From positions 1 through 5,758 of the IMG/VR virus record IMGVR_UViG_3300022758_000325: 5,758 nucleotides of DNA. One strand, 5' to 3'. The stretch's first letter is position 1. The number at the start of each line of letters is the position of its first letter. Below the pieces are notes generated by a model. That model had not been told where the DNA came from. It searched no databases and saw only the letters and a program-made list of their open reading frames with translations. Position numbers and translations under genes: made by a program. The DNA comes from a virus. This document shows positions 1 to 5,758 of the stretch, piece by piece.

Positions 1-127
1 AGAATACGATACAGAGCAGGTTATCACTAAGACCCCCTCGAAATAAAAACTTCCCCCCGTGCCCTTTAGGGTCAGGGGGGTTGTTTTTATTTCTTCTTTA
101 GTCATGCCATGCGATGACCCAAGGCAT
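1..127. repeat. Terminal direct repeat (copy 1); identical to 5632-5758; marks a circular genome of 5,631 bp
   Basis: Base-by-base comparison shows nt 1-127 equal nt 5632-5758 with no mismatch. The repeat stops only because the window ends. It contains the 3' end of the Zot-like CDS (1-46, duplicate of 5632-5677), the bidirectional terminator and the 3' end of the minus-strand 76-aa CDS. Confidence 0.97.
45..88. terminator. Bidirectional rho-independent terminator between convergent genes
   Basis: The sequence reads AAAAAC-TT-CCCCCC (45-58) ... GGGGGG-TT-GTTTTT (75-88). C53-58 pair with G75-80, an inner CCC/GGG stem (62-64/69-71) has loop TTTA, and A45-C50 pair with G83-T88. An A-tract lies on one side and a T-tract on the other. 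It sits between the Zot-like stop (44-46) and the minus-strand stop (98-100). Confidence 0.8.
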
Positions 128-328
128 TTCACTACCTATCCATGCGTCGTGGTAAATTGCCGCAATTTTAATGTCGAAATAGTCGTATTTTCTCTTTGCT
201 TTTTTACCGCCAATATACACTTTTATTCCTTTCCCCTTTAGTATCGCTGCCATGCTTAAGGCTTCTTTCCGGCTGTTGTACCATGCGAAGCGGTTTACAT
301 CCTTGTGTGTAATTGTTTCATGTGTCAT
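98..328 (-). CDS. Hypothetical 76-aa protein (second gene of the minus-strand cassette)
   Basis: The ATG at 326-328 (minus) is preceded by a perfect SD, AAGGAGG, 8 nt upstream (reverse complement of 336-343). The stop is TAA and the terminator at 45-88 follows. I recognise no family motif. Confidence 0.8.
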   Translation of the reverse strand: MTHETITHKDVNRFAWYNSRKEALSMAAILKGKGIKVYIGGKKAKRKYDYFDIKIAAIYHDAWIGSEMPWVIAWHD

Positions 329-346
329 TTTGTTGTCCTCCTTTAC

Positions 347-583
347 TCAATCGCGTAGAAAACTTTTTCCGTCTTCGGTTCTTGCGATTGTTTCCCAATT
401 TTCTTTATCAAGATATCTTGTTGTATCTACGTAGTCGATGTCGATCCGTTTAATAATGGAGAATGTGTAGGAATCTCCATTTTCGTTGGCTGCGCTGTAG
501 TCGAATCTTTTGTATAGATAGTTTTTTGTGCATACGATTCTGTTTCTAATGACTTTTTCAAGGAATCCTTTTTTTACTTTCAT
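347..583 (-). CDS. Hypothetical 78-aa protein (first gene of the minus-strand cassette)
   Basis: The ATG at 581-583 (minus) is preceded by SD AAGGGGA with 7-nt spacing. The stop is TGA, 18 nt before the next gene start. I see no TM segment and no recognisable motif. Confidence 0.8.
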   Translation of the reverse strand: MKVKKGFLEKVIRNRIVCTKNYLYKRFDYSAANENGDSYTFSIIKRIDIDYVDTTRYLDKENWETIARTEDGKSFLRD

Positions 584-612
584 TTTGTTTTCCCCTTTCT
601 TTTTATGTCTCT

Positions 613-641
613 ATTGTAGCATATGATTCTTTATTTGTCAA
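613..641 (-). promoter_or_regulatory. Near-consensus sigma70/sigmaA promoter driving the minus-strand cassette
   Basis: The minus strand reads TTGACA (636-641), a 17-nt spacer, then TGC-TACAAT (-10 at 613-618 with an extended TGn). A T9 run at 654-662 gives an A-tract upstream on the minus strand, which is UP-element-like. The 7-bp inverted repeat TCTATTG (610-616) / CAATAGA (639-645) brackets the -10 and -35 and could be an operator. Confidence 0.8.
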
Positions 642-728
642 TAGAAAATTCTATTTTTTTTTGGGAATTTTGCAGGCAGTTGCCACGTTTAGTCACGCGA
701 TAGCGTCTCCACCGCGTCCCCCGTCCCC

Positions 729-747
729 GCAAGGGCAAAGCCCTTGC
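729..747. other. Perfect 8-bp GC-rich hairpin (GCAAGGGC-AAA-GCCCTTGC) inside the non-coding GC-rich island
   Basis: The 5' arm is 729-736, the loop is AAA 737-739 and the 3' arm is 740-747. It lies between the two divergent -35 boxes, so neither mapped promoter transcribes it. Confidence 0.7.
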
Positions 748-870
748 CCTTCAATACCTGTCCGCATTGGCTTTTTCGCGCTGTATGTGGCATTTGTCGT
801 GTAGGGGGTACGGCTATATCTTTTAACGCTTTTCTTTTGTCCTGCGTGCTCCTGTGGCTGTTTATGGGCA

Positions 871-892
871 TTTTTTTATAATTATAAAAAAA
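871..892. repeat. Perfect 22-nt A/T palindrome TTTTTTTATAATTATAAAAAAA
   Basis: Every position 871+i pairs with 892-i, with the centre between 881 and 882. It sits immediately upstream of the + strand -35 box, so it is in UP-element position. It could also be a protein-binding or bending site. Confidence 0.75.
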
Positions 893-898
893 ACCTTC

Positions 899-927
899 TT
901 GACACTTCTTTTTTTTTGTGTTATTTT
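899..927 (+). promoter_or_regulatory. Sigma70/sigmaA-type promoter for the + strand gene set
   Basis: TTGACA (899-904) is followed by a 17-nt T-rich spacer and then TGT-TATTTT (extended TGn at 919-921, -10 at 922-927). The A/T palindrome lies just upstream. Confidence 0.65.
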
Positions 928-960
928 CTATTCACACGAAGGGCATTTGAATCTTCGCAT

Positions 961-995
961 AATTCCTTTCGTGAATTACGAAAGGAATTTTTTAT
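961..995 (+). terminator. Leader hairpin with T-tract (attenuator or terminator-like, possibly an operator)
   Basis: A perfect 12-bp stem is formed by AATTCCTTTCGT (961-972) and ACGAAAGGAATT (978-989) with loop GAATT. TTTTATT follows immediately. It lies about 30 nt downstream of the predicted + strand transcription start. Confidence 0.55.
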
Positions 996-997
996 TG

Positions 998-1011
998 CCT
1001 TTCGGGAAAGG
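998..1011 (+). other. Second leader hairpin CCTTTCGGGAAAGG, reusing the CCTTTCG/CGAAAGG motif
   Basis: CCTTT (998-1002) pairs with AAAGG (1007-1011) around a 4-nt CGGG loop. The same heptamer core forms both arms of the 961-989 hairpin. Confidence 0.5.
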
Positions 1012-1026
1012 AAAAAAAGTAAGATT

Positions 1027-1161
1027 ATGAGCTTATCGAATGCAGAACTTTACCCACAATTTTTAGTTTTGTATTACTCTGCTGAAAAATCCGGTCGTTT
1101 AGTTGAACTTCTGGAAATTGGTATTGCTTCGAATTTTCATGATTGCTGTTTCCGCTATTGA
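1027..1161 (+). CDS. Possible small ORF (44 aa, MSLSNAELYPQF...)
   Basis: This is the first ATG after the leader hairpins. Its SD-like AAAGGA (1007-1012) is about 12-14 nt upstream, which is long. I recognise no motif. It overlaps the next small ORF, which lies in another frame. Confidence 0.3.
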   Translation: MSLSNAELYPQFLVLYYSAEKSGRLVELLEIGIASNFHDCCFRY

Positions 1162-1252
1162 ATATCGTAAGCTTGTCTTTTCTGATGTTCTTGCTTCACA
1201 TGGTCTTTCGCTGAAGGTTCGTGTTTATCATCTTATCCGTGCTAAAATCTAA
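1139..1252 (+). CDS. Possible small ORF (37 aa, MIAVSAIEYRKLVFSDVLASHGLSLKVRVYHLIRAKI)
   Basis: The translation looks protein-like, but I see no SD before ATG 1139. This frame is open from 1103. It may be a +1 continuation of the 1027 ORF rather than an independent gene. Confidence 0.3.
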   Translation: MIAVSAIEYRKLVFSDVLASHGLSLKVRVYHLIRAKI

Positions 1253-1274
1253 AATCGTAGAAAGAGGTATTTTT

Positions 1275-1517
1275 ATGAAAATTAAAGTATATGGCAAGGC
1301 TCATCTTTTCGGGACGTCGAAGAAAACCGGCAACAAGTATGATTTCATCCAGCTTCATTGTTTAGTTCCTCAGCGTGGCGTCGAGGGTGAGGCCGCAAAG
1401 GTCATTTCTATTTCTCCTGCTATCGTCAATTATGATTCTATTATCGTCGGTAAGTCTTGTTCCGTCGAAGTTGATTTTGATGGTCGCGTTTATTCTTGCG
1501 TTCCTGAGAAGTTTTAA
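1275..1517 (+). CDS. 80-aa protein, candidate gV-like ssDNA-binding protein
   Basis: ATG 1275 has SD AAAGAGG (1261-1267) at 7-nt spacing. The size, beta-rich sequence, lack of a TM segment and position next to rep match filamentous-phage gene V proteins. The function rests on analogy only. Confidence 0.55.
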   Translation: MKIKVYGKAHLFGTSKKTGNKYDFIQLHCLVPQRGVEGEAAKVISISPAIVNYDSIIVGKSCSVEVDFDGRVYSCVPEKF

Positions 1518-1530
1518 TTCTTTTGCTGGT

Positions 1531-1623
1531 GGTTCGGGGGTTCACCCTATAAACATGTCGTGCCCCCTGAACCACTATTCCGACAAGTAGTAATACGTCG
1601 GAATAGTGGTACAAAAATGTACC
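1531..1623. promoter_or_regulatory. Cluster of three abutting inverted repeats just upstream of rep; candidate replication origin or nick-site region
   Basis: IR1 is GGTTCGGGGG (1531-1540) paired with CCCCCTGAACC (1563-1573), giving 10 bp with one bulged T. IR2 is a perfect 14-bp stem, ACCACTATTCCGAC (1571-1584) with GTCGGAATAGTGGT (1597-1610), and loop AAGTAGTAATAC. IR3 is GGTACA-AAAA-TGTACC (1608-1623). No T-tract follows any of them, so they do not look like terminators. Confidence 0.5.
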
Positions 1624-1638
1624 TTAAGGGGGTATAAA

Positions 1639-2473
1639 ATGGTTCAGTACAACAAGTCTGTTGTTACTGATACTGGAACTTATTCTATTGATTATTTTAC
1701 TTTTGACTTTCTTCTTTTAACTACAATTCGCATATTTGATTTGCTTCTTCTTGAAATAGAGAAACTTAAGAGTTCTTGTATCAAGTATCAACACTTCCAA
1801 ACTAATTATTTTGGTAATTTGAAAGAAGTTTTCAATGTGATTCACTTCATATTGAGCTTTCACAAAATAATTTTCAACTTCGTCTTTCGTTTAATCCGAA
1901 TCACTGTATAAATTCCTCTATATTGGTGTTCTTGCTCCGCTTTGTTCGTGTTAACTGTTCCGTTATTGCATTTCGTGTTTCTCGTTGTGATTTCACTTAC
2001 GATATTCCTTTTCATCCTGATTCTGTTATGTTGCTTACTCGGAAAAATGAAGGTCACTTAAAATCTACTCGTTATTATGGTGTGCGTGGTACATCCGGTT
2101 ATCTTCGTATTTATGACAAGCGCTTGGAAGAACAGTCTCGGTTAAAGGATGATTTGATAGGTCATGATTTAACTCGTCTTGAATGGGAAGTCCGTAATGA
2201 ACAGCCTTTTAAGTTTGATCAATTTGCTGTTCCTGATTTCTCATCTCTTTCTGGTGCTGTTGCTCTTCTTAAATATGTAGCTCCTGAGAATTATAATGCT
2301 GCTTTGCTTGAGCTTGATAAGCGCACTCGTAAGAAAGTAAAAGATTCTGTTTTTACTCCATATCCTTTGATCCTGAGTTTTTTTTCCACCTCAAGGAAGT
2401 CTATCTCAGAGAATACGGCTTGCTTGACACGTTCCCGCAGTCGTGGCCGTCTAAGTTGGATGTATGTATATAG
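1639..2473 (+). CDS. Rep_trans-family (pT181 RepC / CTXphi RstA type) rolling-circle replication initiator, with the reading frame interrupted by two -1 shifts
   Basis: ATG 1639 has SD AAGGGGG (1626-1632) at 6-nt spacing. The first frame carries the N-terminal motif YSIDYFTF. The next frame (open from 1818) carries HIELSQNNFQLRL, VSRCDFTYDIP, YYGVRGTSGYLRIYDKRLEEQ and LTRLEWEVRNE. The third frame (open 2333-2473) gives FDPEFFFHLKEVYLREYGLLDTFPQSWPSKLDVCI and stops at TAG 2471-2473, 6 nt before the tRNA. The family assignment comes from remembered motifs, not a search. Confidence 0.7.
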
Positions 2474-2479
2474 CTATTT

Positions 2480-2553
2480 CGCGGGGTGGTGCAATGGTAG
2501 CACGTCACGCTCTGAATGTGAAACTGCTGGTTCGAGTCCAGACCCCGCAACCA
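2480..2553 (+). tRNA. tRNA with anticodon CUG (Gln by anticodon), encoded CCA end and an initiator-type acceptor stem with a C1xA72 mismatch
   Basis: I folded the cloverleaf manually. The acceptor is CGCGGGG (2480-2486) with CCCCGCA (2543-2549), followed by A73 and CCA (2551-2553). U8 is present. The D arm is GTGC-AATGGTA-GCAC, which includes GG. The anticodon arm is TCACG-CTCTGAA-TGTGA, with U33, anticodon CTG at 2512-2514 and A37. The variable region is 4 nt. The T arm is GCTGG-TTCGAGT-CCAGA, with a TTCGA loop and a G49xA65 mismatch. Confidence 0.85.
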
Positions 2554-2601
2554 AAACGGATTTGACTTCCGTTATTTGATGCCGTGAAAGGTGGTGGCGA
2601 A

Positions 2602-3864
2602 GTGAAGAAAAAGCAGCGGTGCTTATTGAAGCGCTTCGTCGCCCTTGTCGCGGTTCTGATGTTTTGTGCGTCTCTTTGTGTCCCTGCGTTTGCTTCAAAT
2701 AATGCTCAATGGCGTAAATGGGTTATTACTGATGAAGCTATGTTACCTAATGAGCAGGGTACTAATTCAAAATATTTTCAGCTTACACCCTTTCAGGATG
2801 GTGCTGTTTATGCTGCTGTCGTTCAGTCTTTTTCCTCGAAGTTCCGTTTTACTGTTACTAATGATGATGGCTCCTCTGTTCATGGTGGCAATTCTTTTGC
2901 GCTGAATTGCTATAATTATCCTGATTGGTGGCGCTCTGCTATTCCTTTAGGTGCTTTGTCTTATATTCAAGTTGTGCCTAAGTCTATCGGGTATGCTTCT
3001 TCGCCTTTTGCATCTTCTTGGACTTCTGCTTCTACTGCTCGTCTTTACTTTTTTGATAGTAATAATCGTATTGACTCCCTTGTTTGGTCTACTGCTGGGG
3101 ACTCTTCTAATCTTACTTCTGTTGGCGGTTATTCTACGGCTGTTGCTCCTCATATTTATCTGACTGAAGCTTCCTTTCCCACCGAACCTTCTACTTTTAT
3201 TGTCTGTGGTGCTTTATGGGTGAATGTTGGGCAAACTTACCGTGTTTCCCTTTCCAGTTTCCAGAATATTGTTACAGGTTGGCCCATTATCTCGTCTGAT
3301 ACTCCTACTTTGGGCGTTGGGCTTTCTACTGCTTATCTTACTAATTTGTCTTCTGATCGTCTCGTTATGGGTGTTCGCGTTAATGACGGTTTTTATTGTA
3401 TGATGACTGCTGAGATCACTTTTTGGGTTGATGCTAATAAGTTGCCCTCTGGTCTTAAAGTTGGCGATGAATTCCCAGCTGATACTGATGCTTTTGATGA
3501 TTTGCGTGATTCTCTTATTGAACAGTTCCCGGAAGCTTCTGATAATATCCAAAATGGCAAGGACACTTTGACCGGTTGGAATGATACTGATACCGTAGAT
3601 ATTGATGTTGCTTCATCTGCTATGTCTGTTCTTAACGCCTTGTTTCAGAATCTCGGTTCTTTCCTCTTCATTGTTTCTCTTATGGTTTTCGGTGCTGTTG
3701 TTCTTCGTATGTTCATTAAAAAGGCGGTGTGGATGACTTTTACTGAATTCTTTAAGCAGGTTTTCGGGTTGTTTGGTTCCGGTGGCGCGCTCGTGATTGC
3801 CGTTGTCGTTTTCCTTGTTTCTCTCGGCATTTATAAATTCGTAAAGGATTGGTTACCATGGTAG
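2602..3864 (+). CDS. Secreted 420-aa protein with C-terminal membrane anchors; pIII-like adsorption or minor coat protein candidate
   Basis: GTG 2602 has SD AAGGTGG (2588-2594) at 7-nt spacing, which is more convincing than the GTG at 2584. The N-terminus MKKKQRCLLKRFVALVAVLMFCASLCVPAFA/SNN is a classic signal peptide. A long Ser/Thr/Gly-rich ectodomain follows, then two hydrophobic helices at the C-terminus. It is the largest ORF in the structural block. The function rests on architecture only. Confidence 0.7.
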   Translation: MKKKQRCLLKRFVALVAVLMFCASLCVPAFASNNAQWRKWVITDEAMLPNEQGTNSKYFQLTPFQDGAVYAAVVQSFSSKFRFTVTNDDGSSVHGGNSFALNCYNYPDWWRSAIPLGALSYIQVVPKSIGYASSPFASSWTSASTARLYFFDSNNRIDSLVWSTAGDSSNLTSVGGYSTAVAPHIYLTEASFPTEPSTFIVCGALWVNVGQTYRVSLSSFQNIVTGWPIISSDTPTLGVGLSTAYLTNLSSDRLVMGVRVNDGFYCMMTAEITFWVDANKLPSGLKVGDEFPADTDAFDDLRDSLIEQFPEASDNIQNGKDTLTGWNDTDTVDIDVASSAMSVLNALFQNLGSFLFIVSLMVFGAVVLRMFIKKAVWMTFTEFFKQVFGLFGSGGALVIAVVVFLVSLGIYKFVKDWLPW

Positions 3865-4025
3865 ATTTTGTTTCAACACTTGGTACGGTTACCTCGTTTA
3901 TTGCTAATGTGCTGAATCTCCCTTTCTTTGGCTTCGGTACCTTTGGTAACTTCGTTCTTGTCTGTCTCCTGCTTTCGCTTGTTGGTTTTGTTCTTCGTGG
4001 CCTTTGGGATGGAGGTGATAAATAA
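3858..4025 (+). CDS. 55-aa double-hydrophobic membrane protein (pVI/pVII/pIX-like minor virion or assembly protein candidate)
   Basis: It falls below the 60-aa cutoff of the ORF track. ATG 3858 overlaps the upstream stop (ATGGTAG). SD AAGGATT (3844-3850) is at 7-nt spacing. The product is MVDFVSTLGTVTSFIANVLNLPFFGFGTFGNFVLVCLLLSLVGFVLRGLWDGGDK. Its stop TAA overlaps the next ATG (TAATG). Confidence 0.65.
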   Translation: MVDFVSTLGTVTSFIANVLNLPFFGFGTFGNFVLVCLLLSLVGFVLRGLWDGGDK

Positions 4026-4423
4026 TGGAAGTTCCTACTATTATTAAAACTTGGGTTGATTCTGACGGCGTTTCCGTCTATACAGTGCAGTATAAAGATG
4101 GTAGCACTTGCGATATGACAGTCCAGCAGTACGATTATCTCAAGGCATCCGCGCAGGCTGTCGCCGACTTGGATGCTAATGCTTCTGCTGATTCTCAGAC
4201 GGAAGAAACTCCTGCTCCCGCTGAACCTGCGCAGAACATTTCCGAAAGTCCGGACCTTCGTGATGGCTATGTACCGCAGGAAGAAGATTTACCTTTTGAG
4301 GGGAGTTTGACAGCTTATGATGACCGCGCCGCAGATACTCCGGCTCTGTATGTTAATCTCCCTGCTGTCTCTAATAGTTTCACTGCTATTATGGATTGGT
4401 TCGGTGATACGTTTTTTTATTGA
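4025..4423 (+). CDS. Acidic 132-aa protein without a TM segment, function unknown
   Basis: ATG 4025 has SD GGAGG (4011-4015) at 9-nt spacing and is translationally coupled to the 55-aa ORF. A compact N-terminal segment is followed by an Asp/Glu/Pro/Ala-rich low-complexity region. By eye its codon usage is more G/C-ending than the neighbouring genes. Confidence 0.75.
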   Translation: MEVPTIIKTWVDSDGVSVYTVQYKDGSTCDMTVQQYDYLKASAQAVADLDANASADSQTEETPAPAEPAQNISESPDLRDGYVPQEEDLPFEGSLTAYDDRAADTPALYVNLPAVSNSFTAIMDWFGDTFFY

Positions 4424-4436
4424 ACGGAGTGAGACG

Positions 4437-4784
4437 GTGCACAAGTCCGGCTTTACGTCTGAAAGGTACTCCTATAATAGTTCGACTCAACTTATTCAGC
4501 TCCCTTACGAGGAAGATATTACTACTACATCTCAAGTTCTCAACCCGCAAGCTTGCGTTTCTGCTTTGCTTGTTGTCCTTGTCTTCATTACTACTGTTAC
4601 TTGGATTAAAAACGCGATTTGGGGGCGGCATGAGCTGATGGAAATTTTACCTTTTGCAATATTGTTTCGGCATCTTTTCTGTCCCCGAAATTGGTTATTT
4701 TATTATTTTCGCTGCTGTTTTCTCTATGTTGGTTCTCCTGTTGCGTCCGTGACAGGTTCCAAAATATTTTTTTTGAAAGGGTGA
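4437..4784 (+). CDS. Membrane protein candidate (115 aa from GTG 4437); the 3' half is uncertain
   Basis: GTG 4437 has SD-like ACGGAGT (4424-4430) at 6-nt spacing. There is a clear TM segment ACVSALLVVLVFITTVTWI followed by basic KNAIWGRH. After about 4640 the translation becomes Cys/Trp/Phe-rich and the other frames give equally plausible hydrophobic peptides. It ends with tandem TGA TGA (4782-4787). Confidence 0.45.
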   Translation: MHKSGFTSERYSYNSSTQLIQLPYEEDITTTSQVLNPQACVSALLVVLVFITTVTWIKNAIWGRHELMEILPFAILFRHLFCPRNWLFYYFRCCFLYVGSPVASVTGSKIFFLKG

Positions 4785-4790
4785 TGACTT

Positions 4791-4982
4791 CAGACTCCTT
4801 CTACTTCCATTGTTGGCGCGCTGCTTTCTCAGGTCGGCGAATTTTTCACTCAGATGATTACTTGGATGGGTCAGCTGATTGATTTCTACGAGCAGCAGCC
4901 GATTCTTCTCGTATTCGTCATTCTGACGATTGCAGGAATCGTGCTTCGTCTTCTCCGCCGTTGGATTCCTGGCCGTTCCTAA
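4791..4982 (+). CDS. Major-coat-protein-like ORF (amphipathic/acidic N-part, TM, basic C-terminus); start codon unresolved
   Basis: The frame is open from 4788 to 4982: (L)QTPSTSIVGALLSQVGEFFTQMITWMGQLIDFYEQQPILLVFVILTIAGIVLRLLRRWIPGRS. The TM followed by RLLRRW is the typical DNA-contacting tail of inovirus coat proteins. A strong terminator directly follows, as after gene VIII of Ff phages. The only in-frame ATGs (4854, 4866) lack an SD, and the SD at 4777-4783 is followed by CAG 4791. The conservative alternative is 4854-4982 (42 aa). Confidence 0.5.
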   Translation, partial: QTPSTSIVGALLSQVGEFFTQMITWMGQLIDFYEQQPILLVFVILTIAGIVLRLLRRWIPGRS

Positions 4983-4989
4983 AGTGTGA

Positions 4990-5038
4990 GAAAACGTCAC
5001 CGACCATTTTTTGGTCGGCGACGTTTTCTCGTTTTATG
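4990..5038 (+). terminator. Strong rho-independent terminator after the coat-like ORF
   Basis: GAAAACGTCACCGACCA (4990-5006) pairs with TGGTCGGCGACGTTTTC (5012-5028), with one AxC mismatch and loop TTTTT. The GC-rich core 4995-5023 is followed by TTTTCTCGTTTT. Confidence 0.8.
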
Positions 5039-5053
5039 AAAGGATTATATGTT

Positions 5054-5677
5054 ATGGTTTATGGTATTCTTATCTTTTGTATTTGCTGGCTTTTTGTATA
5101 TATCGATAATTATTGCAAAAATCCCTACAAATTGGAAGCTGTTGTTGGTTCAAAAGGTTCTGGCAAATCTCTGTATATGTCTCGTGTTGCTGATAAGTGG
5201 CTACGTTCTAATAAAGGGCTTATTTATAGCAATATGGGTATTGGTTATGAGTTAGAGCCGGAATATTGGAAACAGACCTTTGTTCCTGATTCCCTTATTC
5301 TTATTGATGAGATAGGCGTGCTCCACTCTAATCGTGATTTTAAGACTATGCCACGGGATGCTGTCGAGTTTTTCAAGATGCAGCGCAAATATCATTTAAC
5401 AATTATTGTATCTTCTCAAACTATGGATTTTGATAAAAAGATTCGTGACCTCTGCGACCGTATTTATTTATGCAATCGCATTGGCTGGTTCTGTCGCCTT
5501 ACTCCCTATCGCTCCTGTATCGCTATGGAACATCGCCCCGAGGGGGGCCAAGAGTTGGTCAACACGGTGCGGAAGGCGGGTCGGGCAAGGTGGTATACTA
5601 TCCCCAAGTCCGTGAAGCTGGTGAGTGCCTTAGAATACGATACAGAGCAGGTTATCACTAAGACCCCCTCGAAATAA
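5054..5677 (+). CDS. Zot / pI-family P-loop assembly ATPase (207 aa) with an N-terminal TM helix
   Basis: ATG 5054 has SD AAGGATT (5040-5046) at 7-nt spacing. Walker A is VVGSKGSGKS and Walker B is SLILIDEIG. FFKMQRKYHLTIIVSSQ matches the Zot-family HRH-G-D-I-Q block. The N-terminus MVYGILIFCICWLFVYI is hydrophobic. The upstream extension to 4961 in the ORF track runs through the terminator hairpin and is not credible. Confidence 0.85.
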   Translation: MVYGILIFCICWLFVYIDNYCKNPYKLEAVVGSKGSGKSLYMSRVADKWLRSNKGLIYSNMGIGYELEPEYWKQTFVPDSLILIDEIGVLHSNRDFKTMPRDAVEFFKMQRKYHLTIIVSSQTMDFDKKIRDLCDRIYLCNRIGWFCRLTPYRSCIAMEHRPEGGQELVNTVRKAGRARWYTIPKSVKLVSALEYDTEQVITKTPSK

Positions 5678-5758
5678 AAACTTCCCCCCGTGCCCTTTAG
5701 GGTCAGGGGGGTTGTTTTTATTTCTTCTTTAGTCATGCCATGCGATGACCCAAGGCAT
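5632..5758. repeat. Terminal direct repeat (copy 2), identical to 1-127
   Basis: See copy 1. It contains the true 3' end of the Zot-like CDS, the second image of the terminator (5676-5719) and the 3' end of the minus-strand 76-aa CDS (5729-5758, partial duplicate of 98-127). Confidence 0.97.
5676..5719. terminator. Bidirectional terminator (same physical element as 45-88)
   Basis: The sequence is identical to 45-88 (offset 5631). Confidence 0.8.

Follow-up and report, generated by a model that had tools for sequence, protein, structure and literature searches.

By the prevailing view, it is the large double-stranded DNA (dsDNA) phages that encode tRNAs (PMC4032129). Here we describe a tRNA gene, tRNA-Gln(CUG) at positions 2480–2553, in a viral DNA of 5,758 nucleotides (IMG/VR record IMGVR_UViG_3300022758_000325, positions 1 to 5,758), which is referred to as the window at its full length and holds the genome of a filamentous phage (inovirus). 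Like the codon-supply or anti-defense tRNAs of large dsDNA phages, for instance the tRNA-Lys of T5 (PMC11464382, PMC11555353, PMC4032129), it is encoded by the virus, unlike the host isoacceptor in sequence and selected. Its carrier differs from theirs, being a 5-kb single-stranded DNA (ssDNA) filamentous phage with about ten genes, a single tRNA and no matching shift in codon usage. An earlier note, made from the letters of the window, had remarked that tRNA genes are not known as a normal feature of genomes of this size. This accords with the literature, where tRNA genes are not known in ssDNA or filamentous phages (PMC4032129; PMC6813254 mentions tRNAs as attachment (att) sites only), and no earlier report of an inovirus-encoded tRNA was found within the searchable literature. 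What is new here is that the carrier is unexpected for a phage tRNA and that the acceptor end is both unusual and fixed. We hold with high confidence that 2480–2553 is a real, selected, phage-encoded tRNA-Gln(CUG).

The acceptor end of the window tRNA (CGCGGGG/CCCCGCA, discriminator A73, CCA) is identical to that of the E. coli initiator tRNA (tRNA-fMet), including the unpaired C1×A72. The earlier note was exact on this point, as all 5426 complete E. coli genomes contain the 77-nt tRNA-fMet sequence with 100% identity (median 4 copies, annotated as tRNA-Met). The likeness to tRNA-fMet (metZWV/metY) comprises C1×A72, G2:C71, C3:G70, G4:C69 to G7:C66, A73 and CCA, the set to which recognition by formyltransferase and avoidance of EF-Tu and of peptidyl-tRNA hydrolase are ascribed (PMC6393288), and it ends there. 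The phage tRNA has the anticodon CUG instead of CAU, lacks G29–G31:C39–C41, carries U11:A24 where tRNA-fMet has A11:U24, and is 74 nt long with a 4-nt variable loop (77 nt and 5 nt in tRNA-fMet); many family members have G1 and not C1. The absence of the other initiator hallmarks (11:24 pair and run of three G:C pairs) had likewise been read correctly. The nearest functional analogue with experimental data is the engineered E. coli i-tRNA-CUA/3GC of the Varshney and RajBhandary laboratories, which is formylated, inactive in initiation and elongates only if formylation is limiting (PMC6393288). Both would combine an initiator acceptor stem, anticodon-based Gln charging and an elongator-type anticodon stem. 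The engineered molecule is artificial, reads UAG and has an initiator body, whereas the phage tRNA, as judged from sequence alone, is natural, would read CAG, and has a tRNA-Gln body and a Clostridial host. Among natural tRNAs, 74-nt tRNA-Met(CAU) genes of large IMG/VR phages (L185–L214) share the 5' half CGCGGGG-UG-GUGUAAYGGUAGCAC, the 4-nt variable loop, A73, CCA and, in most cases, C1×A72. They differ in having CAU and a GGG/CCC anticodon stem, which makes them candidate true initiators, and at an identity of ~48–51 of 74 positions common descent is unproven. Their contigs belong to large phages (20–295 kb) or are fragments, and the genes resemble compact phage-encoded initiator tRNAs.

Functional knowledge of such an acceptor end comes from the literature and mostly from E. 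coli, whereas the hosts here are Clostridia. The determinants of the formyltransferase (Fmt) are the 1×72 mismatch together with 2:71 and 3:70; the mismatch also disfavors EF-Tu binding and protects from peptidyl-tRNA hydrolase (Pth), and a tRNA that carries it is still able to elongate when unformylated (PMC6393288). GlnRS charges an initiator tRNA whose anticodon is CUA, and the charged tRNA is formylated; an initiator variant without the three G:C pairs is formylated and initiation-inactive, elongating only when formylation is limiting (PMC6393288). On the glutamine side, charging by GlnRS requires opening of the 1:72 pair, with the enzyme stacking on A72 and G2 (PMC1635274), whereas bacterial GatCAB tells U1:A72 from G1:C72, with U1 as perhaps the key base (PMC1635274, PMC2811023). 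The bodies of tRNA-Gln are weak EF-Tu binders, marked by the absence of U from 49:65 and by U in 51:63 (PMC1904265), a T-stem pattern that G49.A65 and U51:A63 of the window tRNA fit.

ARAGORN identifies a single tRNA in the window, tRNA-Gln at 2480–2553 on the plus strand, with the anticodon CTG starting at nucleotide 33 of the gene (2512–2514). Rfam RF00005 aligns end to end with 2480–2550 (model positions 1–71) at 52.1 bits and E = 2.3e-9, the gathering score being 29 bits, and the minimum-free-energy fold of 2480–2553 is a cloverleaf. The sequence displays U8, A14, G18G19, U33, A37, the T-loop UUCGAGU and an encoded CCA, so that both the complete gene with a CUG anticodon and the individual features (U8, GG D-loop, U33, A37, TTCGA T-loop, CCA) that had been listed beforehand are borne out. 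Its anticodon stem contains A29:U41, C30:G40 and G31.U39 and is therefore without three consecutive G:C pairs.

Selection on the gene was analyzed in an alignment of 35 distinct homologous sequences, including three divergent variants. Standard pairs make up 91.4% of the paired positions, double-sided changes occur in 13 of the 21 pairs (116 cells), and the observed covariation score was matched by none of 500 shuffles. Sliding the 3' partner by one to three columns lowers pairing to 35–50%. All five pairs of the anticodon stem covary, while the loop YUCUGAR and the anticodon within it are constant. The tertiary nucleotides (U8, A14, G18G19, U33, purine 37, T-loop UUCRANU) and CCA are invariant or nearly so. 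In the acceptor stem, 1:72 is unpaired in 35/35 sequences, 2:71, 3:70 and 5:68 are invariant, and 4:69, 6:67 and 7:66 covary; 11:24 is U:A throughout (35/35), 29:41 is A:U in 30 of the 35, and 49:65 is unpaired in 20. Since pairs change in concert while the anticodon loop stays fixed, a decaying fragment is excluded, and the pattern argues for a working RNA with a retained decoding end. The CUG anticodon in a canonical loop is also retained in almost all of a larger collection of 80 distinct sequences. By this comparative evidence the gene is under purifying selection as a tRNA.

The same gene recurs in related phages. Seven GenBank genomes named “Inovirus sp.”, from pigs, all carry a homologous tRNA-Gln(CTG), which is annotated in none of the seven records; in MT135307 the annotated start of the coding sequence of the pIII-like protein (1664–2986) falls within the unannotated tRNA (1650–1723). 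A tRNA-based pattern matched 16 IMG/VR contigs, all of 4.2–5.7 kb. An IMG/VR search based on pI/Zot, the assembly ATPase, returned 37 contigs, with the tRNA in all but four (L030, L038, L047, L055). These four had been considered as close relatives without the gene; the contigs end exactly at the pIII-like gene and are uninformative. A metagenome scan added 91 further tRNA-bearing contigs, mostly of ~5 kb and from human gut. Dereplication yielded 73 inovirus genomes of ~5 kb from human and pig gut, recovered with the tRNA. The gene lies on the coding strand in 73/73 of them, and in 70 an open reading frame (ORF) of at least 300 amino acids, the pIII-like gene, begins a median of 47 nt 3' of it. 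The window tRNA aligns in 63 of 72 genomes (median identity 90.5%), the upstream 200 nt in just 4 of 72, because replication modules get exchanged. Homology with relatives begins or ends exactly at the tRNA ends. In these alignments, the tRNA stands out as a conserved island where two modules join and is, by its distribution, a fixed component of a clade of ~5-kb filamentous phages of gut Clostridia. Single copies deviate: one has an 8-nt anticodon loop (four-base anticodon ACTG according to ARAGORN) and a shortened D-loop (L045, 1578–1646), another has G33 (L036, 5134–5207), and those of MT135307 (L001, 1650–1723) and MT135309 (L002, 5343–5416) have C37 and score below the Rfam threshold. These aberrant copies are possibly decaying or specialized.

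For comparison with cellular genes, a pattern that imposes the D-arm and the loops retrieved at least 120 cellular tRNA-Gln(CUG) genes (L056–L175). They have the D-arm UGGUGUAAYGGUAGCAC, the anticodon loop, the 4-nt variable loop and the length of 74 nt in common with the phage tRNA. In bacterial tRNA-Gln(CUG) such as L264 3698–3771 the likeness includes the loop YUCUGAR, the D-loop AAYGGUA, G10, U11:A24 and a similar T-stem (U in 51:63, no U in 49:65). The difference lies at the helix end, where the phage has G1 or C1 opposite A72, followed by A73. Cellular genes have a weak first pair, U1:A72 or A1:U72 and, in three among the matches listed, U1.U72. These three (L069, L098, L146) come from metagenome-assembled genomes (MAGs) of Christensenellales, Firmicutes and Clostridia and provide a cellular precedent for an unpaired first position. 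Genes of Clostridia and Oscillospiraceae read N1-G2-C3-G4-G5-G6, with stems such as AGCGGGA/UCCCGCU and UGCGGAA. The discriminator is G73 in tRNA-Gln of Oscillospiraceae and Clostridial hosts, and A73 in that of Verrucomicrobia and in the phage.

The host tRNA-Gln(CUG) found on two contigs with integrated relatives has A1:U72 and G73, and its pairs 2–6 (GCGGG) are those of the phage; the match to the L264 gene covers G2:C71, C3:G70, G4:C69, G5:C68 and G6:C67. Phage and host acceptor helices thus differ at 1:72, at 73 and by a swap at 7:66. Because pairs 2–6 are identical in the host, G2:C71, C3:G70 and G4:C69 are best read as tRNA-Gln heritage and not as an import from an initiator, and the phage-specific parts of the acceptor end, as far as these comparisons go, are the unpaired 1×72 and A73 only. 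The “initiator-tRNA acceptor stem” of the earlier note therefore holds as an identity with tRNA-fMet, but most of this stem is ordinary tRNA-Gln and only 1×72 and A73 are distinctive. A72, A73 and CCA are invariant also in homologs retrieved independently of these bases (GenBank records, pI/Zot search). Of 79 distinct tRNA-Gln(CUG) sequences from these phages, 62 begin with G and 17 with C, and none with U or A. Since U1, the sole partner for A72 and the first base of nearly all cellular tRNA-Gln, does not occur in any of them, the mismatch itself, beyond a merely weak pair, is under selection. Overall identity to bacterial tRNA-Gln(CUG) is 48–55 of 74. The best identity to any cellular tRNA is 55/74 among the matches listed (loose pattern, genome scan), and comparison of the window tRNA with Gln and initiator classes for ancestry gives 48–57 matches for every class.

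Wider relatives, sampled at pI identities of 53–74% to the window protein, have tRNAs of homologous body in the same slot 5' of the pIII-like gene, some with Gln(UUG) and others with Thr anticodons (Table 1); some of the CGU copies have a pyrimidine at position 37, and several other relatives (pI 53–61%) have no tRNA in the slot. As homologous bodies with differing anticodons occupy one place, the slot is old and the anticodon changes over time. The mismatch together with A73 is confined to Gln anticodons among the relatives sampled, which suggests that its basis is biochemistry specific to Gln rather than a property of the phage tRNA in general.

Codon usage lends no specific support to a supply role of the tRNA. 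CAG accounts for 25 of the 38 Gln codons in the window, including 9/13 in the pIII-like ORF and 7/7 in a 132-amino-acid ORF; these two counts had been given in the earlier note, and its third (6/6 in a coat-like frame) could not be reproduced in any plus-strand ORF. Third positions were said to be T/A-biased, which is true of T (52%) and untrue of A, the rarest third base, so that G-ending codons outnumber A-ending ones. The CAG preference is therefore a general trend of T-rich yet A-poor third positions. CAG/(CAA+CAG) is 0.62 in 41 tRNA-bearing genomes and 0.62–0.65 in relatives without a detected tRNA, close to an overall G3/(A3+G3) of 0.60, and no CAG-specific enrichment was found either in the window or in this comparison. 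Codon usage had been taken as a functional link, a claim that we abandon. In two relatives with a CGU tRNA the share of ACG is 0.66 versus 0.57, from just 47 codons, which is too few to conclude. CAG also gives no start-codon signal: the enrichment of 2.25 that it shows downstream of Shine-Dalgarno motifs is like that of ordinary codons, versus 5.7 for ATG.

Hosts were approached via integrated relatives. Inovirus-like prophages of 7–8 kb with the same kind of tRNA and a tyrosine recombinase nearby are present in the Oscillospiraceae contigs L229, L235, L253, L277, L294, L262/L264 and L233. Within bacterial contigs, they combine the tRNA with a ~600-amino-acid secreted protein, a 277-amino-acid membrane protein and Rep. 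A flanking phosphofructokinase is 90–91% identical to Oscillospiraceae MAG proteins, consistent with the assignment of gut inoviruses to Clostridiales by CRISPR (PMC8530359). One prophage element (99.5% identical between contigs) occupies two loci; in one contig a host tRNA-Gln is 68 nt away, in the other the neighbor is rplU, and the element's own tRNA lies ~2.4 kb inside. No integrase was found among the ORFs and Pfam matches of the window genome.

We consider it rather probable that the tRNA is cut out of an operon transcript, receives glutamine and serves as a CAG-reading elongator, and that a Gln-linked tuning underlies its mismatch, its A73 and its weak T-stem. It would probably be co-transcribed with neighboring genes, released by RNase P and 3' trimming, and once charged would supply the phage with a decoder of its own, independent of the host. 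The unpaired 1×72 and A73 may ease opening of the helix end for charging enzymes and go along with weak EF-Tu binding of the tRNA body, and may confer resistance to peptidyl-tRNA hydrolase or to a host enzyme acting on tRNA-Gln, and would not serve an initiator function. Elongator behavior is also what the slot suggests, because relatives fill it with Gln(UUG) or Thr-anticodon tRNAs, the latter mostly with a paired U1:A72. Several points weigh against this account. In E. coli a 1×72 mismatch disfavors EF-Tu and, with G2:C71 and C3:G70, directs formylation, and the engineered i-tRNA-CUA/3GC undergoes formylation and hardly takes part in elongation in wild-type cells (PMC6393288). For bacterial GatCAB, U1 itself may be required, which the phage tRNA does not have (PMC1635274, PMC2811023), and if a weak pair sufficed, U1:A72 would be expected at times, contrary to its count of 0/79. 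The odd anticodon loops of the aberrant copies sit poorly with decoding, CAG enrichment is lacking, and one related host (L264) has its own tRNA-Gln(CUG), so that a benefit of supply is not evident. This last finding also weakens the proposal of an AT-rich host short of the isoacceptor, and the evidence leans slightly against a plain shortage of CAG decoders. The reason for keeping the tRNA would be one of two, extra dosage of a CAG decoder or replacement of a host tRNA-Gln inactivated in infection.

The latter option shares the elongator mechanism and differs in the selective reason: host tRNA-Gln would be inactivated by an anticodon-arm nuclease or an acceptor-end enzyme, of the host or of a competing element, with the phage tRNA as a resistant substitute that sustains CAG decoding. 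Single phage tRNAs can neutralize tRNA-cleaving defenses (PMC11464382, PMC11555353), as documented for T5, whose tRNA-Lys acts against PARIS (PMC11464382), and for a phage-borne tRNA-Tyr that counters a retron effector (PMC11555353); phage tRNAs can also acquire resistance mutations (PMC13056530). Strong selection for exactly one tRNA in a minimal genome, the switching between Gln and Thr anticodons among lineages, an acceptor end that departs from that of the host at fixed positions, a host already equipped with tRNA-Gln(CUG) and a codon usage that offers no supply argument all suit counter-defense. So does the anticodon stem as the fastest-covarying helix (5/5 pairs), although drift under structural constraint would be expected to produce this as well. 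No nuclease that targets tRNA-Gln has been identified in these hosts, and chronically infecting filamentous phages are not known to trigger such abortive-infection systems; we regard this explanation as possible but unlikely. Distinctly less likely, in our estimate, is a formylatable hybrid, a Gln-charged tRNA that the host would formylate to fGln-tRNA, kept off EF-Tu and resistant to Pth, and acting in initiation at CAG or as a sink for formyltransferase or IF2. The identity of its acceptor end with that of tRNA-fMet speaks for it. Besides the 7:66 swap, the differences from the host tRNA-Gln (1:72 and 73) are those that complete the E. coli formylation determinants (1×72 with 2:71 and 3:70), and a CUA initiator is both GlnRS-charged and formylated (PMC6393288). 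The mismatch is unrepaired in 79 sequences, 2:71 and 3:70 are invariant while 4:69, 6:67 and 7:66 covary, mismatch and A73 go with Gln anticodons only, and CAU tRNAs in large phages combine an identical 5' half with C1×A72 and three G:C pairs. Other points weigh against it: the anticodon stem lacks the three G:C pairs (nearly all variants have A:U at 29:41), U:A occupies 11:24, the corresponding E. coli molecule that lacks these pairs is initiation-inactive (PMC6393288), CAG is not placed like a start codon (2.25 versus 5.7 for ATG), sister lineages fill the slot with 1:72-paired tRNAs, and Fmt specificity is known from E. coli, whereas the hosts are Clostridial. Special initiation behavior of a hybrid tRNA, one of the explanations offered at the outset, received no positive support. 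By analogy, the phage tRNA would be a natural counterpart of i-tRNA-CUA/3GC, with an acceptor end evolved for formylation by the host and for non-AUG initiation or interference with host initiation, which we likewise judge improbable; if true, it would be a viral tRNA that crosses the divide between initiator and elongator.

A role outside decoding, as an RNase P or RNase Z cut signal between the replication and structural transcripts or as a recombination junction of exchangeable modules, would make decoding incidental. It fits the constant position at the boundary between a variable replication module and the structural module, homology that starts or stops exactly at the tRNA ends, the lack of a detected promoter of its own and the copies with non-canonical anticodon loops. 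A mere cleavage signal would not need the conserved G18G19, T-loop, A73 and encoded CCA, nor the CUG and canonical loop kept in almost all of the 80 distinct sequences by variants that differ in every anticodon-stem pair, and we think this very unlikely. Hardly credible is a captured host tRNA, a remnant of the phage attachment site (attP) or an assembly chimera. Many inoviruses do integrate at tRNA genes (PMC6813254, PMC8530359), and a host tRNA-Gln is situated 68 nt away from one integrated relative. The gene is, however, full length and covarying, reaches at most 55/74 identity to cellular tRNAs among the matches listed, and lies ~2.4 kb inside prophages, the same element occurring at two loci; the window genome has no integrase among its ORFs and Pfam matches. 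Capture and att site, raised in the earlier note, were rejected on these grounds; integrated relatives carry the full-length gene, and not the 3' part alone that would mark an attP remnant, at internal positions of prophages inserted at different sites. Misassembly was dismissed since the same arrangement recurs in more than 100 independent assemblies, from many samples of pigs and humans.

In a 5.6-kb genome of about ten genes, the tRNA takes 1.3% of the length, and it is kept with clear structural covariation across more than 100 human and pig gut contigs. So small a genome carries nothing dispensable, and the tRNA must therefore pay its way. The phage group is also abundant, as one pI cluster alone comprises 3081 member sequences. 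The system lends itself to a particularly clean test of what makes viruses carry tRNAs, codon supply or evasion of defense, and its fixed 1×72 and A73 on a tRNA-Gln are a natural experiment on initiator and elongator determinants and on the formation of Gln-tRNA in Clostridia. On the practical side, the GenBank records of these phages miss the tRNA in their annotation.

Table 1. Features of the window and tRNAs in the corresponding slot of wider relatives.
Sequence	Feature	Position	Strand	Evidence or details
Window	Terminal direct repeat, 127 nt, 100% identical to 5632–5758	1–127		Repeat search
Window	Rep (replication initiator) gene, split over three frames	1606–2473	+	Weak Pfam Rep_trans match, tblastn, alignment
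Window	tRNA-Gln(CUG) gene, complete, 74 nt, CCA encoded	2480–2553	+	ARAGORN, Rfam RF00005, fold, covariation
Window	Acceptor stem, 5' strand: C1 G2 C3 G4 G5 G6 G7; C1 unpaired with A72	2480–2486	+	Sequence
Window	D-arm GUGC-AAUGGUA-GCAC; U11:A24, G18G19, 7-nt loop	2489–2503	+	RF00005, alignment
Window	Anticodon arm UCACG-CUCUGAA-UGUGA; CUG at 2512–2514, U33, A37	2505–2521	+	ARAGORN, RF00005
Window	Variable loop AACU (4 nt) and T-arm GCUGG-UUCGAGU-CCAGA; G49.A65 unpaired, U51:A63	2522–2542	+	RF00005, alignment
Window	Acceptor stem, 3' strand CCCCGCA (A72 = 2549); A73 = 2550; CCA = 2551–2553	2543–2553	+	Sequence
Window	Long secreted pIII-like gene; likely GTG start at 2602 after Shine-Dalgarno-like GGTGGTGG, then signal peptide	2602–3864	+	ORF list, phrog_24417, phrog_22214
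Window	pI/Zot-like assembly ATPase	4961–5677	+	Pfam Zot E = 3.7e-5 (above cut-off); phrog_25712 E = 2.7e-146
L314 (pI 74%)	tRNA, Gln(UUG)	3253–3326		59.6 bits; G1.A72, A73, CCA
L308 (pI 62%)	tRNA, Thr anticodon CGU	1023–1100		U1:A72, U73
L177 (pI 56%)	tRNA, Thr anticodon CGU	1914–1987		U1:A72, U73
L310 (pI 57%)	tRNA, Thr anticodon UGU	1059–1132		55.9 bits; U1:A72, U73
L176 (pI 62%)	tRNA, Thr anticodon CGU	640–713		G1.A72, C73

The genes around the tRNA, with pI/Zot as the placing marker, form an inovirus-type set by their profile matches. The pI/Zot protein of the window has homologs in 84 clusters, nearly all from contigs of 4–6.7 kb. Other genes encode an RstB-like ssDNA-binding protein, a Rep_trans-like protein and several small membrane proteins, and all window genes (ORFs, profile matches) lie on the T-rich strand. 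As the first and last 127 nt are identical, the genome is a circle of 5631 nt. Rep and the pIII-like gene, the latter with its structural block, are separated by 128 nt, and this gap holds the tRNA on the coding strand. By homology, the true Rep stop is TAG at 2471–2473, 6 nt 5' of the tRNA, and in MT135307 an intact Rep of 289 amino acids ends 6 nt 5' of its tRNA as well. A 218-amino-acid ORF (1923–2579) that runs through the tRNA was dismissed as a frameshift artefact in view of this intact ortholog and the homology-based stop. Rep in the window shows two 1-nt deletions in T runs (~1829–1832 and ~2366–2368), and a third apparent frameshift is seen at ~4392–4417, where 4025–4423 and 4317–4784 (a “protein F”-like gene) both match phrog_27347. 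Sequencing errors or, alternatively, a defect of this genome would account for the three frameshifts relative to intact orthologs.

No sigma-70-type promoter was found directly upstream of the tRNA, the sole promoter-like match being antisense and inside the gene, and no convincing terminator was found at the tRNA, as a downstream hairpin (2555–2573) is no better than in shuffled sequence. A function of the tRNA 3' end as a primer-binding site, complementary to another site of the genome, was also considered and rejected, since no inverted repeat in the window involves 2540–2553. A 54-nt imperfect palindrome with a G/C core (GAAATAAAAACTTCCCCCCGTGCCCT..AGGGTCAGGGGGGTTGTTTTTATTTC) at 40–93, identical to 5671–5724, overlaps the last pI/Zot codons and is a more plausible candidate than the tRNA for the role of packaging signal or origin of the complementary strand. 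Two strong hairpins have 17-nt arms (94% complementary) at 1568–1613, just 5' of the Rep start, and 19-nt arms (95% complementary) at 4988–5030, where the pI ORF begins. Each may act as an origin, an operator or a terminator.

At its end (3733–3864, MTFTEFFKQVFGLFGSGGALVIAVVVFLVSLGIYKFVKDWLPW), the pIII-like ORF has 43 codons that match a separate, small PHROG family (phrog_22214) and resemble a major coat protein. This coat-like piece is fused in frame in the window, whereas in relatives its frame differs from that of the pIII-like gene. Finally, a related inovirus (L308 4312–5094 / L309 3072–3854) encodes a 260-amino-acid protein with a Spo0A C-terminal domain (PF08769), which suggests, from the domain match, that the host is a spore-forming member of the Firmicutes and that the phage may interfere with the control of sporulation.

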